From a virus (Duplodnaviria; Caudoviricetes), in IMG/VR virus record IMGVR_UViG_3300047554_000854, positions 1-53,918 of that record: a stretch of DNA of 53,918 nucleotides; one strand, written 5' to 3'. Below the pieces are notes generated by a model. The model was not told the origin of the DNA. It searched no databases and was given only the letters and a program-made list of their open reading frames with translations. Shown here in pieces: positions 5,822 to 13,785 of this stretch (positions are counted from its first letter, which is position 1; each line of letters starts with the position of its first letter). A program made the position numbers and the translations under genes.

Positions 5822-6379
5822 ATGACGGAAATCAAATACGAACTAACCAACCTTGACGACACCCAGCGTGCTATGCGTGCTAGGGGAACACACAACAACG
5901 CCTCTGGTAGTGAGGAGGTGTGGCTTGGCGAACACTTCGGCATAGATGTATGGGCTGGCATTGACATTGGCAACTACCCTGACTATGGCGATAGTGGCAA
6001 GTATCTCAAAGAGAACTACACAGAGAAACAACTCAAGACTTACAGCAACTACCTAAGCCCTTACAGCATTTCTAGGATTATCTCTGGCGAGGTAAAGGCA
6101 ACTGAATACGACCTCAAATGGACGCTCGCAGATGTAAGCCTCTACTTCTATGTAATGAACACAGAGGTAGCAGAGAGTTACCTGTTTGCGACCAAGCAAG
6201 AGTTCGCATTTTGCCCAGAGGCGAACATTGTTGCTCTTGACGAGCCACAGGCGTTCGGCGTTCTAGATGTAGTCAGGAACGCTGTGCGTGGAAATGTCAG
6301 CCTGTTCGACTACGCTGTGAACAAAGCACTAGTGGAGGCGAAATCACTAGCCAGCGACATTTCCAGAAAACTCACCTAA
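5822..6379 (+). CDS. Hypothetical protein, leaderless
   Basis: 185-aa ORF directly after promoter. Confidence 0.8.
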   Translation: MTEIKYELTNLDDTQRAMRARGTHNNASGSEEVWLGEHFGIDVWAGIDIGNYPDYGDSGKYLKENYTEKQLKTYSNYLSPYSISRIISGEVKATEYDLKWTLADVSLYFYVMNTEVAESYLFATKQEFAFCPEANIVALDEPQAFGVLDVVRNAVRGNVSLFDYAVNKALVEAKSLASDISRKLT

Positions 6380-6387
6380 AAATAGAT

Positions 6388-6417
6388 TTGACAACTTCGC
6401 ATTAGTCGTGCTAAGTT
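6388..6417 (+). promoter_or_regulatory. Promoter with box B (AACTTCGCATTAG) in the spacer
   Basis: TTGACA-18 bp-TAAGTT, TG extension. Confidence 0.75.
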
Positions 6418-6469
6418 TGACCTTGTTGGAAACCTCCAGCAATAAACCCCCGAAAGGACGGAAACACAA

Positions 6470-6949
6470 ATGGCAGTAGGAACTATTGTCGGCAAGGGAC
6501 TTTACCTAGAGTTCGTGCCAACCACTCCCAAGAGTGGCAACCCTGTATTACAACTCCTCTTTACCCCAGAGGGCTTTGACGAGAAAGGTGCTTACACGCC
6601 TTTCTGCCTACACTCTCGCACTATCTCGGAGAACTCGCCAAGAAAACAATGGAGAGTTACCAAGTGCGGAACTGACAACAAAGAACTCCTAGCCTCTGGC
6701 GAACCTGTTGGTCAGGTCAAGGCACAGGAACTCGCTGTTCAGATGTTAGAGCGATTTGAAATGTCGGTTCAGAAAGCGATTTTCCCAAAGGGAACTGACG
6801 CAGAGTGGTCGCTACGCTCAAAGCCTATCGCTGTTGAAATCACCTCGTTCGACCTCCTAGAGGTGAACGAATACAAAACCCCAGCCCCAGCACTTCGGCG
6901 TATCCAGAAGTGTCGTGTAGCACTTGACTTCCCAGAGAAGTTAGTCTAA
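6470..6949 (+). CDS. Hypothetical protein
   Basis: RBS GAAAGGACGGAAAC, 159 aa. Confidence 0.8.
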   Translation: MAVGTIVGKGLYLEFVPTTPKSGNPVLQLLFTPEGFDEKGAYTPFCLHSRTISENSPRKQWRVTKCGTDNKELLASGEPVGQVKAQELAVQMLERFEMSVQKAIFPKGTDAEWSLRSKPIAVEITSFDLLEVNEYKTPAPALRRIQKCRVALDFPEKLV

Positions 6950-6986
6950 GGTCTAACTAAACAATCCACTAAGGACGGAAACTGAA

Positions 6987-8006
6987 ATGACAACAACCAC
7001 AGCACCAGAAACCAAGTCGCTAGACGACATTTACCCAGACCTCTCCAAGTTGGTCTATGGGGTAGCAATCCAGAGCCTAGACGCAGGTTCTATTCCCTCG
7101 GGACTAGAGAGCCTAATGCCTACTGCTGGTCGTGCTAACCTTAGAGCAAAGGGCGGAGAGAAATCAGCAAGCACCCCAAAGGCAAAGGCAGAGAAAATGG
7201 TGGACGCACTCGTAGGTGAGGAGAAATACACTCGCCCTAATGGTCGTGACTACTACGCTCGCAAGTGGGGCGAACACACCGACATTGAGGTTCTACGCAA
7301 GGCTCGTGAGGCAAAGCAGTATGTTCTGCTCTATGGCAACCCGGGCTGTGGCAAAACTGCTCTCGTTGAGGGTGCTTTCGGGGACGACCTCTACACCATT
7401 ATTGGAACAGGCGACACAGAGGTAGGCGACTTCCTCGGTGGCTATGTCCAGACCCCAAGTGGCGGTTTTGAGTGGGTGGACGGAGTTCTGACCAAAGCAG
7501 TTGAGGAGGGCAAAGTCCTACTCATTGACGAGATTGGTCTGATTGACCCAAAGGTTCTCTCGCTTGTCTATGGTCTTATGGACGGACGAGATGAACTCAC
7601 GATTACAGCCAACCCCGAGCGTGGCACTATCAAAGCCAAAGAGGGCTTTTATGTAATCTCGGCTACCAACCCGAACGCCCCAGGGGTTCGCTTGTCGGAG
7701 GCTCTGCTCTCTCGCCACTCAATCCACGCAGAAATGACTACTGATTGGGGTCTTGCTCGCAAGTTGGGTGTCCCTGTTTCGGCAGTTACTCTGGCACAGA
7801 ACCTCGCCAAGAAACAGGTCGCAGGTGAAGTTTCGTGGTCGCCAGCGTTCCGAGAGTTGGAGGCGTTTAGGGACTTGGCTACCACCTTTGGAACTCGGTG
7901 GGCTGTCCAGAACCTCCTAGCAACTGCCCCAGAAATGGACAGGTCAGTTGTGGCGGAACTCGCTACTCGTATCTTTGGCGAGGAGTGCCGACCAGCAAAG
8001 ATTTAG
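6987..8006 (+). CDS. MoxR/CbbQ-family AAA+ ATPase
   Basis: Walker A GNPGCGKT, Walker B LLIDE, ATNP sensor, ALLSR; next to a VWA gene. Confidence 0.9.
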   Translation: MTTTTAPETKSLDDIYPDLSKLVYGVAIQSLDAGSIPSGLESLMPTAGRANLRAKGGEKSASTPKAKAEKMVDALVGEEKYTRPNGRDYYARKWGEHTDIEVLRKAREAKQYVLLYGNPGCGKTALVEGAFGDDLYTIIGTGDTEVGDFLGGYVQTPSGGFEWVDGVLTKAVEEGKVLLIDEIGLIDPKVLSLVYGLMDGRDELTITANPERGTIKAKEGFYVISATNPNAPGVRLSEALLSRHSIHAEMTTDWGLARKLGVPVSAVTLAQNLAKKQVAGEVSWSPAFRELEAFRDLATTFGTRWAVQNLLATAPEMDRSVVAELATRIFGEECRPAKI

Positions 8007-8129
8007 TTTCCGTCCGAAACTAAAAGTGGAGGGTGTCAAGAAAGTTGCGAAATGGACTTGACACCTTTCCACGACCTATGCTAAGGTCTTACTAGCAACA
8101 ACAAACGAAGTCGGGAAAGGACTTTACAA

Positions 8130-9926
8130 ATGGGACACACTTCAAGATTGGCGACACGCACTAGTGCCACGCCTCCTGCTTGGCTAAAGGTTTGCTCGCA
8201 GATTGGCGAACAGGCTAACGCTTGGGCAGACAGAGGCGACCTCGCTGTTTATGGTGGAGAGGACGCAGGTATGGGTCAAGCCCTCGCTTGCTTTATCCAC
8301 GACACAGCAGAAATCGAAATCAACCTACCTATCGCTTTCGGCAAAGCCACCACTCCAGAAATGGTTGGCGACCTACGCCTACGCAAAAATCAGTATGAGT
8401 TCCCAGAGGCGACAGGCGTAATCCTCCACGAGGCATTTCACGCTCGCTACTCTGGCTGGGACTACCCTCGCCTAGAGAGCCTAGACCCAAAGGTGTCTGA
8501 CGCTTTTATGCTCTTGGAGGAGGCTCGCATTGAGGGGCTGGCTGTTTACCACTACCCACAGAACGCTCTGTTCCTACGAGCCTCGGCTATGGGACTTTCG
8601 TTCGCAGAGGCAGAGGAGAGTATGGAGGGCAAATCCACCACTAGTGCTTTCGCTCACCTTTCGGCTCTGACCCTCGCACGAGTGGACGCTGGCGTTCTGG
8701 ACGAGTTTGATGTTGCGAACTTGGAACGACTTATCCTGACCAAGATTAGCGAGGCTACTCTGGACACGCTACGAGAAATCTGGCGTGAGTTCCAGACCCT
8801 AAATGTTTCCCAGATTGCTCGGGGTATCGAACTTGCCGAGGCTTGGGTCAAGGCTGTTGCGGAACAGGCAGAGGCTAATGGCGAACCTGCCGAGCCAACA
8901 GAGGCAGAGAAAGAGGCTATGGCAGAGGCTATGGCACAGGCTCTCTCCGAGATTATGGACGCTCTGGGTGAGGCTATGGGAGATGTTGCCAGCGACAACG
9001 CTGACGCTCTCGCTGACCAAGAGCAGGACGAGAAACGCAAAGAGGAGGCAAAGGAACGAGCCTCTGCGAGCAAGGAGAAAGCCAAGCGTGAGGCAGAGGC
9101 AGAAAAGGTTTTCGCCTCGCCTAGTTCTGGTTCGCCTAGTGGCTCTGGCTCTCGTTCACGCCTACACCAAACTCGCCAGCCAAAAGGCGGAGAGCGAGCA
9201 GGGGCGGTCAAGTTGGCACAGATGTTAGAGAAAGCCAAGTATGTCGAACGCTCGGTTACAGAGGTGGACAGCGTAATCCCACAGGGTCGCCTCCGTCCTC
9301 GTGCTTTGGTTCAGAAAAAGGCGTTGGAGAGCAAGGGCGTTCGCTCTGACCTCCCGACTTGGAGAGCAACCAAGCGTAAGCACACAGACGACCCAGAACT
9401 TTCGATTGGCGTTATGGTGGACATTTCTGGTTCTATGGGTTCGGCTATGGAGAGTATGGCGAGTATCGCTTGGATTTTGTCCGAGGCAGGTCGCAGGGTT
9501 CAGGCTAGAACTGCTATGGTCTATTTCGGCTCGGGCGTATTCCCTACGCTCAAGGTCGGACAGCACCTCCCCGAAGTCAAGGTGTTCACAGCACCAGACG
9601 GAACAGAGGAGTTTGAAACAGGCTACAAAGCACTTGACGGAGTTCTCGGGCTGACCTACCGCTCGGGCGTGAAGTTGCTCGTAATCGTTTCGGACGGACA
9701 CTACCGCCACGACCAGACCGAGGCTCTGGACAAGGCACTCGCCGAGTGCGAGCGTTCAGGCGTGGGCGTTCTATGGATTACTCCGAAAGAGTGCTACTCG
9801 GGGATTGAGCGACAACTCGCCAGCACCCACGCAGAACACCTAACCGCCACCGACACCGACACGATTGCTATGGCTATCGGGAACTCGGTGAGCAAGGCAC
9901 TCGCTAGGATTGGAGGGAGGGTGTAA
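8130..9926 (+). CDS. VWA-domain protein with N-terminal HExxH region (CobT-like partner)
   Basis: ILHEAFHARY, LEEARIE; MIDAS VDISGSM and VSDG. Confidence 0.85.
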   Translation: MGHTSRLATRTSATPPAWLKVCSQIGEQANAWADRGDLAVYGGEDAGMGQALACFIHDTAEIEINLPIAFGKATTPEMVGDLRLRKNQYEFPEATGVILHEAFHARYSGWDYPRLESLDPKVSDAFMLLEEARIEGLAVYHYPQNALFLRASAMGLSFAEAEESMEGKSTTSAFAHLSALTLARVDAGVLDEFDVANLERLILTKISEATLDTLREIWREFQTLNVSQIARGIELAEAWVKAVAEQAEANGEPAEPTEAEKEAMAEAMAQALSEIMDALGEAMGDVASDNADALADQEQDEKRKEEAKERASASKEKAKREAEAEKVFASPSSGSPSGSGSRSRLHQTRQPKGGERAGAVKLAQMLEKAKYVERSVTEVDSVIPQGRLRPRALVQKKALESKGVRSDLPTWRATKRKHTDDPELSIGVMVDISGSMGSAMESMASIAWILSEAGRRVQARTAMVYFGSGVFPTLKVGQHLPEVKVFTAPDGTEEFETGYKALDGVLGLTYRSGVKLLVIVSDGHYRHDQTEALDKALAECERSGVGVLWITPKECYSGIERQLASTHAEHLTATDTDTIAMAIGNSVSKALARIGGRV

Positions 9927-10200
9927 GCCTCCCCCACAAGAACCCGATAGGGATTGAGCAACCGAGGAGTTTCCGTCCCCTTTCACCTCACCTGCTCTCC
10001 CTGTCGGTCAGAGAACCCCCGAGATTTCCTTCCCATTTCTCTCGGGGGTTTTCGCTTACCCCCGAGCCTGTATTCGTTTTTTCCTGAAGGCGGCAAGCAA
10101 CTTCTCATTAGTGTTGGAAAGTTTTACTGAAGGGGGTTGTTGACAACTTCGCACTAGTGGTGTAAGGTCTAGGTAAGGACGAAACGAAAGGACGGCAAGC

Positions 10201-10602
10201 GTGATTGACACAATGCCATTCCCATACCTCAACGAGTATGACCTAAACATCTGGATAGATGATGACGGATACTTACGAGCTAGTGCTTACCAACTCTGCC
10301 TTGATAAATCTATTGGGGTGGACGAACACGGAGAGCCTACCTACCAGCCTACGAACTACGGCTGTTCTGACGCATTTACTTTGGTCTGTATCCACGAACA
10401 CGAATACATTGGGATTGACAGGGACGAACTATACGCTCGCCTTGATGATGAGTGGGACACTATTACAGGGTTCTTGTCTGACCCTCGTGAGTGGAAGTCA
10501 GACTTCCCCGAGTTCTACGAGTTGGTCTGTGACGCAATCAAAGAGGAACTTATGGACGAGTTCGGAAACCTGAAGTATTACGAGGCTTGCCAACACGCCT
10601 AA
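10201..10602 (+). CDS. Hypothetical protein
   Basis: Promoter TTGACA(10140)/TAAGGT(10163), RBS GAAAGGA. Confidence 0.75.
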   Translation: MIDTMPFPYLNEYDLNIWIDDDGYLRASAYQLCLDKSIGVDEHGEPTYQPTNYGCSDAFTLVCIHEHEYIGIDRDELYARLDDEWDTITGFLSDPREWKSDFPEFYELVCDAIKEELMDEFGNLKYYEACQHA

Positions 10603-13494: not shown

Positions 13495-13785
13495 ATGCTT
13501 TACAGACACGCACTAGGAGAAGTTCTCCGAGAGGAACGCCACGCACAGGGTAAGACCCTACGCACGATTTCAGGCACAGGGCGTATCGCTCTGGGATACC
13601 TCTCCGAGATTGAGAGAGGCGACAAGGAGATTTCATCTGAAATCCTCGCTGGGGTTGCTGACGCTCTGGGACTACAAACCTCCGACATCATCATCAGGGC
13701 AGGTCTGCGTATGGCTGGGCTATTAGTTCCCGACACGGCAGAAACGCTACTTGACGAATACGCCGACCTTGTGGTAAGGTCTTAG
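13495..13785 (+). CDS. XRE-family HTH regulator, ClgR-like
   Basis: LGEVLREERHAQGKTLR...LGYLSEIERGDKEISSEIL matches the actinobacterial ClgR pattern. Confidence 0.8.
   Translation: MLYRHALGEVLREERHAQGKTLRTISGTGRIALGYLSEIERGDKEISSEILAGVADALGLQTSDIIIRAGLRMAGLLVPDTAETLLDEYADLVVRS

Follow-up and report, generated by a model that had tools for sequence, protein, structure and literature searches.

Complementarity between ribosome-binding leaders and 3′ hairpins as a conserved feature of an ATPase–VWA gene module in an actinophage and its relatives

Organization of the ATPase–VWA locus

The window studied here, i.e. the whole stretch of 53,918 nucleotides that was analyzed, carries on its plus strand an ATPase gene (6987–8006) encoding a 339-aa protein of the AAA_5 type (MoxR/CobS-like; PF07728, E 2e-18), followed by a gene for a 598-aa CoxE-like VWA protein (8130–9926; PF05762, E 4.6e-6), the match of which scored 26.7 bits (cut-off 26.4). 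Upstream of the ATPase gene lies gene A (6470–6949, 159 aa), which is kept in relatives and matches neither a Pfam nor a PHROG family. Reading a repeat by eye we noted two promoter-like elements on the same strand, with P1 (6388–6417; TTGACA at 6388–6393, an 18-nt spacer and TAAGTT at 6412–6417) presumed to be the start of a gene A–ATPase transcript, and P2 (8058–8087; TTGACA at 8058–8063 and TAAGGT at 8082–8087) being located upstream of the VWA gene. The motif TTGACA-N17/18-TAAG(G/T)T recurs in the window at positions 6388, 8058, 10140 and 10611, and P1 was absent from the list produced by a consensus promoter scan.

The leader of gene A (GAAAGGACGGAAAC, 6452–6465) consists of a Shine–Dalgarno sequence and spacer and is the partner of the VWA-tail loop described below, that of the ATPase gene (GGACGGAAACTGAA, 6973–6986) covers part of the Shine–Dalgarno sequence together with the spacer and abuts the ATG at 6987, and that of the VWA gene is GGGAAAGGAC (8113–8122). 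At the ends of the genes, the plus strand can form a hairpin at the ATPase tail (8002–8024; 5′ arm UUUAGUUUC, loop CGUCC, 3′ arm GAAACUAAA) and another one at the VWA tail (9944–10007), having an 18-nt apical loop (AGUUUCCGUCCCCUUUCA, 9968–9985) that displays an anti-leader sequence at 9969–9984. Thereafter follows a terminator-like hairpin (10011–10053) with a 14-bp stem and a 15-nt loop, succeeded by UUUUCGCUU, which we presume from its sequence to be the 3′ end of the transcripts; a scan with a loop limit of 8 omits this hairpin, its loop being 15 nt. A megablast search of 6000–10400 against GenBank phages gave 0 matches, with relatives being found via protein, and Rfam covariance models gave 0 matches to either strand of the same region at E up to 1.

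Complementary sequences within the window

The original prediction held that the end of the ATPase gene and the loop following the VWA gene can each pair with a leader in the same block, and both duplexes were confirmed in the sequence. Thus, TTTAGTTTCCGTCC (8002–8015) pairs with the ATPase leader (6973–6986) over 14 positions with one G-U, and GTTTCCGTCCCCTTTC (9969–9984) pairs with the gene A leader (6452–6465) as 6 + 8 bp with a CC bulge in between, the latter pair enclosing the former so that the two are nested. The 10-mer GGACGGAAAC had exactly four perfect copies in the 54-kb window, two of them in sense orientation (+ 6456, in the gene A leader, and + 6973, in the ATPase leader) and two in antisense (– 8006–8015, in the hairpin spanning the stop codon of the ATPase gene, and – 9969–9978, in the VWA-tail apical loop), as compared to 0 forward and 0 reverse copies when the same 10-mer was read backwards as a control. 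Allowing up to one mismatch gave eight copies, to be compared with 4.05 ± 2.0 for shuffled sequences, and since 4 of 100 shuffles reached eight it is only for the exact 10-mer that the copy number is notable.

When duplex energies were calculated for the 75 leaders of the window, the best partner of the ATPase tail was its own leader (–22.9 kcal/mol), with the gene A leader as second best (–18.8 kcal/mol) and a mean for all leaders of –8.2 kcal/mol (sd 3.5). The top leaders for the VWA loop were those of gene A (–19.8 kcal/mol) and the ATPase (–19.7 kcal/mol), with generic GAAAGGGG leaders close behind at –19.4 to –18.5 kcal/mol, and the VWA loop pairing is thereby less specific by energy. With the VWA leader itself (8113–8122) the VWA-tail loop of the window pairs over just 6 + 2 nt. 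For the 73 other genes of the window, the complement between own leader and own tail was 3–8 nt. A genome-wide habit of the phage could be ruled out, the feature being restricted to the ATPase–VWA module in the window as well as in the relatives.

Covariation in related loci

Covariation in related phages had been put forward with the original prediction as a check, and the outcome was strongly positive, with permutation z values of 10–13 and supporting contrasts between sister pairs. For the ATPase gene we compared 62 distinct loci out of 81 usable ones, with the window among them, determining the longest Watson–Crick complement between the leader (–25 to +3) and the tail (stop –12 to +40). 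The mean complement was 7.34 nt, compared with 5.27 ± 0.14 nt for shuffled pairings, and the duplex energy was –16.0 compared with –12.1 kcal/mol, with 0 of 10000 shuffles reaching the true value in either case. At least 7 nt were paired in 46 of the 62 loci, using more than 20 different core sequences, and fewer than 7 nt in the other 16. The pairing register was seen to shift from locus to locus.

Using 42 representative loci with <90% ATPase identity, z was 12.5 for the ATPase leader with its tail, 10.2 for the VWA leader with its tail and 9.4 for the gene A leader with the ATPase tail, and an own complement of at least 8 nt was found for the ATPase in 21/42 and for VWA in 24/42. Own pairings were also compared with swapped ones in 24 disjoint sister pairs, where they were better in 14, tied in 10 and worse in 0 for the ATPase, the corresponding numbers for VWA being 10, 13 and 1. 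The closest relative (L014) has the gene A leader GGACGAAAAC and the VWA loop GTTTTCGTCC, which is a compensatory change.

The strongly positive covariation among relatives indicates that the complementarity between 3′ elements and leaders in the ATPase–VWA module is under selection, and RNA pairing from end to end would be its simplest cause. Judging from the loci compared, the feature is a conserved property of this module across the whole phage family. The suggested end-to-end or 3′-UTR-derived RNA pairing was in this respect supported by the covariation as regards the pairing as such, but its scope had been drawn too narrowly for what appears as a family-wide property of the module.

Specificity of the complementarity

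Strong enrichment was limited to the reverse-complement orientation, with direct and reversed comparisons giving z values between –0.6 and 0.6 and complement-only comparisons giving 0.5, 2.9 and 3.9. A position scan located the signal to stop –3 to +22 (z 10.3), with z 0.9 for the coding stretch +3 to +33. Matching the VWA leader with the ATPase tail from its own genome gave z –2.2 for the 42 representatives, and the ATPase tail had a longer complement with its own leader than with the VWA leader in 38 of the 42 loci and a shorter one in 0. Another 443 genes from these 42 loci were scored as well, and 10 of them reached a complement of 8 nt and 0 reached 9. A possible second helix, between sequence following the ATPase hairpin and the leader, gave a weak signal (z 3.5), mostly deriving from a clade that has an anti-RBS in a second hairpin farther downstream.

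These controls bear on whether the antisense copies could be ribosome-binding sites of the minus strand, or products of chance and composition as generic Shine–Dalgarno sequences meet a pyrimidine-rich tail, which we find barely credible. All leaders being purine-rich, some 5 nt of complement do remain in shuffled pairings, and a 55-codon minus-strand ORF (9961–9794, starting with TTG) begins 7 nt past the minus-strand copy at 9969–9978. However, the controls by permutation, by orientation, within the same genome and with other genes exclude chance and composition, and a minus-strand ORF of at least 40 codons at the right distance was present in merely 8 of 34 representatives for the ATPase and 1 of 28 for VWA.

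Reverse-complement symmetry belongs to DNA as much as to RNA. When G-U wobble was compared with A-C at the duplex flanks no excess of G-U was found (6/65 and 2/56 at own flanks, with 49/449 and 113/743 in controls), so that it is the context alone that marks plus-strand RNA as the pairing species. This result, having no RNA-strand signature, would also agree with short inverted repeats flanking the genes and serving a DNA-binding protein or a recombination/inversion system. Such repeats would nevertheless be just 7–14 bp long and of more than 20 core types, so that a protein would need to co-evolve with them each time, one copy is always positioned on a ribosome-binding site with the other in or beside a hairpin loop right after a stop codon, and a Pfam scan of five ORFs (5822–6376, gene A, ATPase, VWA and 10201–10599) identified no recombinase. 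An explanation at the DNA level hence seems very improbable.

Variants and exceptions among relatives

That the VWA loop is aimed at the leader of gene A, as predicted from the window, did not turn out to be general, the loop in most relatives instead matching the leader of the VWA gene itself. One locus (L039) has abutting ATPase and VWA genes and no ATPase hairpin, and there the VWA-tail loop is complementary to the ATPase leader over 14 nt. In Microbacterium phage Pumpernickel translation of the ATPase is coupled to that of gp226, and 11 nt of the gp226 leader have their complement in the hairpin following the ATPase gene. The complement covers the Shine–Dalgarno sequence with gene-specific flanks or, in one clade, the spacer and AUG, and in the clade of L053, L062, L070 and L072 no VWA anti-leader was found. 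Several relatives have a leader motif that is common to many genes of the genome, such as AAAGGACAA with about 10 occurrences in L033 and L005, and in such relatives the loop is not gene-specific. Gordonia phage Forza, at 42% ATPase identity, had no complement longer than 7 nt, and the feature does not reach this distant a phage.

The targets of the VWA loop also bear on a possible action in trans, whereby the 3′ hairpin and terminator would be released as a stable small RNA derived from the 3′-UTR, using the loop as a seed for repression of the module leaders. Small RNAs derived from 3′ ends are usually built as a hairpin plus terminator, and in the window the VWA-tail hairpin with its exposed loop directly precedes the terminator-like hairpin, with the loop fitting the gene A and ATPase leaders (10–11 nt) better than its own (6 nt). 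However, comparing the VWA tail with its own and the ATPase leader in the 42 loci, the own complement was longer in 26, equal in 9 and shorter in 7, for which no diffusible RNA is needed, and the ATPase-tail hairpin overlaps a stop codon and is without a terminator. Action in trans is in our view unlikely.

Structure of the 3′ hairpins

The ATPase-tail hairpin (8002–8024) has a 9-bp stem with the UAG stop codon (8004–8006) inside its 5′ arm, and a stop codon was likewise found within a hairpin arm of the ATPase tail in 29 of the 42 representatives. The anti-leader sequence (8002–8015) comprises the 5′ arm and loop, with 9 of its 14 bases being held in the stem. We also considered this hairpin as a canonical intrinsic terminator, which would be recognized by a G+C-rich stem and a U tract, but rejected that assignment since no U tract lies downstream; the stem has 2 G-C pairs among its 9 bp and is followed by AAGUGGAGGG, and the hairpin was absent from the list of the terminator scan. 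A G-rich run is found 3′ of the hairpin.

The VWA tail (9927–10065) folds at –53.1 kcal/mol (z –5.4), with 0 of 200 shuffles folding as well, and among the representatives the VWA-tail stems are long (10–18 bp). In 28 representatives with a VWA complement of at least 7 nt, the anti-leader was 80% unpaired compared with 49% for the whole tail. For the ATPase tails, the mean unpaired fraction of the anti-leader in MFE folds was 0.54 compared with 0.47 for the whole tail, and many of these folds have some of the anti-leader bases paired. The mean folding z of the tails against shuffles was –3.4 and –2.1, with –0.5 and 0.0 for coding controls. Folding leader and tail together using RNAcofold predicted the ATPase duplex with a gain of –17.3 kcal/mol, and the gain of 0 for VWA is uninformative, since the pairing of a loop with a leader cannot be represented by that program.

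Such structures could also suggest that pairing mainly affects the stability or processing of the mRNA instead of repressing translation, either by shielding the 5′ region from RNases, or by a ribosome-free leader invading the 3′ hairpin and thereby exposing the mRNA to 3′ exonucleases or RNase III. The hbs mRNA of Bacillus subtilis is an example of the former, with a 14-bp interaction between its 5′- and 3′-UTRs described as overlapping an RNase Y site, modulating cleavage and protecting the mRNA (PMC5737220), and the long VWA-tail stems, as well as the 9-bp hairpin that the window leader would have to open in order to pair with 8002–8015, agree with the idea. The complement is, on the other hand, centered on the ribosome-binding region (–25 to +3), such that it must block 30S binding when paired, and effects on stability and translation can coexist. 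A role chiefly in stability or processing we consider improbable.

Discussion

Our preferred reading, which we give a probability of about 0.6, is that long-range 5′–3′ RNA pairing occludes the ribosome-binding sites of the ATPase–VWA module genes, acting in cis. The hairpins following the ATPase and VWA genes would accordingly be RNA elements that show an anti-leader of 7–14 nt, mostly in their loops, directed at the ribosome-binding region of their own cistron or of the first one in the same transcription unit. After transcription of the 3′ end, the loop would pair with a leader about 1–3.5 kb upstream, whereupon the ribosome-binding site would be occluded and less translation initiated, with the paired mRNA probably being opened to decay. 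Pairing of leader and tail is supported by the covariation, and from the sequences we infer that both partners are on one RNA and pair in vivo, and that they presumably repress translation in cis as a feedback.

A more elaborate and rather doubtful version would have the ATPase-tail hairpin act as a termination-gated switch in a closed-loop, ribosome-sensing phage mRNA. As the last codons and the stop are located in the 5′ arm and the anti-leader extends no more than about 15 nt past the stop, a terminating ribosome must melt the hairpin and strip off the leader. Initiation would with such gating be possible only during transcription or while ribosomes reach the end of the mRNA, and an idle mRNA would lock shut. 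If true, this would be a device that arose separately for the individual genes of a two-protein machine so that their output is fixed.

Returning to pairing in cis that occludes ribosome-binding sites, its confinement to two genes among hundreds of neighbors suggests that these phages depend critically on the dosage of the ATPase and the VWA protein. A dosage link would provide a handle on the role of the ATPase–VWA module. Dozens of compensatory variants, natural and independent of one another, are available here in one gene module, and because a version is present in the cultured Microbacterium phage Pumpernickel the proposal can be tested at the bench. It also calls for caution in annotation, as hairpins following stop codons are not always terminators.

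Distant complementary segments that govern access to a ribosome-binding site are known from RNA phages such as MS2. Those concern the genomic RNA of single-stranded RNA phages, whereas here the mRNAs are of a large double-stranded DNA actinophage with the element 3′ of the regulated gene, and our literature searches found no earlier phage example of pairing between a 3′ hairpin and a ribosome-binding site. Very few natural long-range 5′–3′ interactions are known in bacterial mRNAs, three being cited in the discussion of PMC12697547. In the B. subtilis reporters described in that article, pyrimidine-rich anti-SD-like 8-mers pair with a ribosome-binding site located hundreds of nt upstream of them, inhibit initiation and promote decay. 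Those 8-mers are synthetic and are depleted in natural genes according to that account, while the phage sequences are conserved and change in concert with the leader, which argues for selection for the interaction and provides evolutionary evidence that selection can favor distal anti-RBS sequences, beyond avoiding them. The hbs mRNA shares with the phage module a long-range pairing of similar length that joins both ends of the mRNA, but covers an RNase Y site where the phage pairing covers a ribosome-binding site.

On the best reading of the sequences, the pairing in the phage module would be of the kind found for icaR, i.e. a 5′–3′ pairing that sequesters the Shine–Dalgarno region. The 3′-UTR of icaR reportedly belongs to a 390-nt class. 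In this Staphylococcus aureus mRNA, a 3′ anti-Shine–Dalgarno motif, UCCCCUG, is described as pairing with its own Shine–Dalgarno region, with experimental proof (PMC3868564). In both cases a motif following the stop codon complements the Shine–Dalgarno region of its own gene or unit, and the proposed outcome is the same, with a blocked initiation complex and decay. While icaR is a single, experimentally proven bacterial gene, the phage case rests on covariation across about 60 loci, and differs from icaR in having gene-specific complements of 7–14 nt, display in hairpin loops, a stop codon inside the hairpin, and two or three genes in the module each having a partner of its own.

Complementary leaders and tails in a three-gene block

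The window is a piece of an uncultured viral contig with an estimated completeness of 33%. Its AAA ATPase shares 73% identity with the counterpart in DSL-LC01, a metagenome-assembled Actinomycetia phage whose host is predicted to belong to the Actinomycetia (PMC10611076), and 57% with the one encoded by Microbacterium phage Pumpernickel. The pairing sites studied here lie around a block of three plus-strand genes, gene A (6470–6949, no family), the AAA_5 ATPase (6987–8006) and a VWA/CoxE-like protein (8130–9926), followed on the same strand by a long hairpin with an 18-nt apical loop (the VWA-tail hairpin, 9944–10007) and then by a terminator-like hairpin with a U tract (10011–10053). In the predicted fold these two hairpins jointly reach −53.1 kcal/mol (z −5.4). 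The gene 3′ of the ATPase encodes a VWA/CoxE-like or ‘cobalamin biosynthesis’ protein in both the window and DSL-LC01; in Microbacterium phage Cece (L088, 4443–7774) the two genes 3′ of the ATPase are annotated as rIIA-like and rIIB-like.

The original prediction held that 3′-end hairpins of the ATPase and VWA genes are complementary to leaders of the same block, and both pairs were found where it had placed them. The ATPase leader GGACGGAAACTGAA (6973–6986) can pair with TTTAGTTTCCGTCC (8002–8015) over 14 positions including one G–U, and the gene A leader GAAAGGACGGAAAC (6452–6465) pairs with GTTTCCGTCCCCTTTC (9969–9984) through 6 + 8 bp separated by a CC bulge. Exact matches to their common core, GGACGGAAAC, number four in the 53.9 kb, half of them sense and half antisense, and all lie inside a 3.5-kb stretch; the backwards-read control gave 0 and 0, and the number of copies with up to one mismatch was unremarkable (8 versus 4.05 ± 2.0 in shuffles). 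Of the antisense copies, the first makes up the 5′ arm plus loop of a 9-bp hairpin having the ATPase stop codon inside the arm, and the second lies in the VWA-tail hairpin and takes up its apical loop.

When duplex energies were determined against 75 window leaders, the ATPase tail preferred its own leader (−22.9 kcal/mol; mean −8.2, sd 3.5) by a wide margin over the others. For the VWA loop, gene A and the ATPase came out on top, with generic GAAAGGGG leaders barely behind. A stereotyped leader, GAAAGGG(G)-N-AAC-AA-ATG, precedes most plus-strand genes at ~15000–35500. Such leaders would pair with a 16S rRNA whose extreme 3′ end reads ...CCUCCUUUCU. The loop of the terminator-like hairpin (10025–10039, AUUUCCUUCCCAUUU, complement GGGAAGGAA) is also anti-SD-like, and no partner leader for it was found in the module. 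The minus strand opposite the 3′ end of the VWA gene has a TTG-initiated ORF of 55 codons (9794–9961), beginning 7 nt past a minus-strand copy of the leader motif; as this pattern is not conserved among the relatives, the ORF is probably spurious.

Covariation among related loci

A protein-guided scan of IMG/VR gave 80 related loci with ATPase identities of 53–83%, for each of which the 30 nt before the ATPase start were read side by side with the 40 nt past the stop. The post-stop sequence contains the reverse complement of the Shine-Dalgarno region and its flanks from the same locus, with letters that vary from locus to locus (for example CCAAGGAGT/ACTCCTTGG, GGGAGGATGG/CCATCCTCCC, GAAAGGACAA/TTGTCCTTTC, CACAGGGAG/CTCCCTGTG or GGAGACC/GGTCTCC). 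From 81 usable loci, including the window and DSL-LC01 and leaving out one truncated locus, we obtained 62 distinct ATPase leader–tail pairs. The test for covariation in related phages was positive, with the longest exact complement averaging 7.34 nt in true pairs versus 5.27 ± 0.14 nt in shuffled ones, and duplex energies of −16.0 versus −12.1 kcal/mol; none of 10000 shuffles reached the true value in either measure. Complements of at least 7 nt occurred in 46 of the 62 pairs and of at least 8 nt in 30, as compared with 231 of 3782 mismatched pairs at the latter length, and the feature was absent from 16 of the 62.

The VWA gene displays the same pattern, having past its stop a long stem with a large loop that contains a complement of the VWA leader, such as GAAAGGAACGGAA (13 nt) in L006 and TGACGGAAGGAC (12 nt) in L064, with one clade of VWA tails lacking this anti-leader throughout. 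Some genomes have the leader motif at many genes, so that their loop is not gene-specific. Using 42 representatives (<90% ATPase identity) out of 50 loci with all three genes, we found z scores of 12.5 for ATPase leader with ATPase tail, 10.2 for VWA leader with VWA tail, 9.4 for gene A leader with ATPase tail, 4.9 for gene A leader with VWA tail and 4.4 for ATPase leader with VWA tail. A compensatory change separates the window from L014, its closest relative: the gene A leader reads GGACGGAAAC versus GGACGAAAAC, and the VWA loop GTTTCCGTCC versus GTTTTCGTCC.

Control comparisons

With the wrong partner from the same genome, VWA leader against ATPase tail, z was −2.2 in the 42 representatives; in 38 of the 42 loci the match of the ATPase tail to its own leader was longer than that to the VWA leader, and in none was it shorter, and the VWA tail matched its own leader longer than, equally to or shorter than the ATPase leader in 26, 9 and 7, respectively. 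Strong enrichment was seen for the reverse complement only (direct and reversed orientations, z −0.6 to 0.6; complement-only, z 0.5 to 3.9). The signal was located at leader positions −25 to +3 combined with stop −3 to +22 (z 10.3), and the first 30 coding bases gave z 0.9. Other genes of the 42 loci (n = 443) had own-tail complements of 5.05 nt on average, reaching at least 8 nt in 10 and at least 9 nt in none, with at least 8 nt seen for 21/42 ATPase and 24/42 VWA genes; for the other 73 window genes the range was 3–8 nt. Among 24 disjoint nearest-relative pairs, own pairing exceeded swapped pairing in 14, with 10 ties and no loss, for the ATPase, and in 10, with 13 ties and one loss, for VWA. 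No G–U excess was seen at the flanks of the complementary cores.

Hairpin anatomy and rearranged modules

In ATPase tails the 5′ arm of the hairpin consists of the last codons, usually with the stop codon (in the arm in 29/42), and the anti-leader follows in the loop. These tails and the VWA tails fold better than shuffles; coding controls do not. In the predicted fold, 80% of the VWA anti-leader is unpaired versus 49% of the whole tail (28 representatives with at least 7 nt), and in many ATPase tails, including that of the window, local base-pairing is predicted for some of the anti-leader. A G-rich run (GGGAGG, GGGGAG) lies 3′ of the ATPase hairpin in many loci (for example window 8027–8035, L052, L054, L070, L084) and often pairs with the pyrimidine-rich anti-leader in MFE folds; it could be a local competitor.

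In one clade (L009, L012, L032) the loops are instead CATTGGGTG-like, belong to a second hairpin and are complementary to spacer and start codon. At L039 there is no ATPase hairpin, the ATPase and VWA genes lie directly against each other, and the VWA-tail loop is complementary to the ATPase leader over 14 nt. In Pumpernickel (L086) the beginning of the ATPase gene and the stop of gp226 overlap; gp226 is distantly homologous to gene A (24% identity, E 7e-6), and the hairpin 3′ of the ATPase has an 11-nt complement to the gp226 leader. The L039 and Pumpernickel rearrangements both fit an end-to-end pairing of a transcription unit. The annotated TTG start of Pumpernickel gp228 (4354) lies inside that hairpin, and its true start may be farther downstream. 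Cece has an 8–9 nt complement, and none was seen in Gordonia phage Forza.

Promoter-like sites

In our reading, the promoter-like string TTGACA-N17/18-TAAG(G/T)T recurs at 6388, 8058, 10140 and 10611, with a weaker copy at 13751. Its fuller form, TTGACA(ACTTCGCA)-N-TG-N-TAAG(G/T)T, sits ahead of successive small gene blocks. A sigma-70 consensus scan of the window did not list the four sites because of the −10 element being TAAGGT. A perfect 9-bp inverted repeat with a 16-nt gap (GGTGTCAAG, 8032–8040; CTTGACACC, 8057–8065) includes in its 3′ arm the −35 hexamer of the site at 8058, and could serve as an operator or form a structure in read-through RNA; similar GGGAGTGTCAAAAAAGTT...ATGGACTTGACA strings occur 3′ of the ATPase hairpin in L007, L016, L017 and L079.

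Proposed mechanism and relation to known systems

That selection keeps a loop complementary to a ribosome-binding region 1–3.5 kb upstream of it has its simplest explanation in base pairing inside the mRNA. Such pairing would keep the Shine-Dalgarno sequence from 16S rRNA, and reduced initiation, probably with mRNA decay, is therefore to be expected; in B. subtilis, synthetic distal anti-SD 8-mers have been shown to act in this way (PMC12697547), as has the icaR 3′-UTR (PMC3868564). Weighing against this reading are the missing G–U excess at the core flanks, the ATPase pairs and the clade of VWA tails that lack the feature, the leader motifs found at many genes of some genomes and the anti-leaders predicted to be locally paired. 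The window pairs would be nested: in a transcript of ~6425–10053, predicted from sequence, the gene A leader would join the VWA-tail loop, and inside that pair the ATPase leader would have the ATPase-tail hairpin as its partner; a shorter predicted transcript from ~8095 would make only a 6 + 2-bp contact with the VWA-tail loop.

Comparative support for the putative element is unusually strong, and its architecture invites a bolder, more speculative reading: the stop codon lies in the hairpin, the loop displays the anti-leader, and the two genes of a two-protein module each have a partner of their own. In the literature searched, no phage element of this sort turned up, nor was there a mention of it in the consulted parts of the DSL-LC01 paper (PMC10611076). 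Related to it are distal anti-SD effects (PMC12697547) and the hbs interaction (PMC5737220). Among known systems, the icaR 5′–3′ UTR interaction of S. aureus is the closest; the sequence features that define the icaR type, together with covariation, are found in the phage module.
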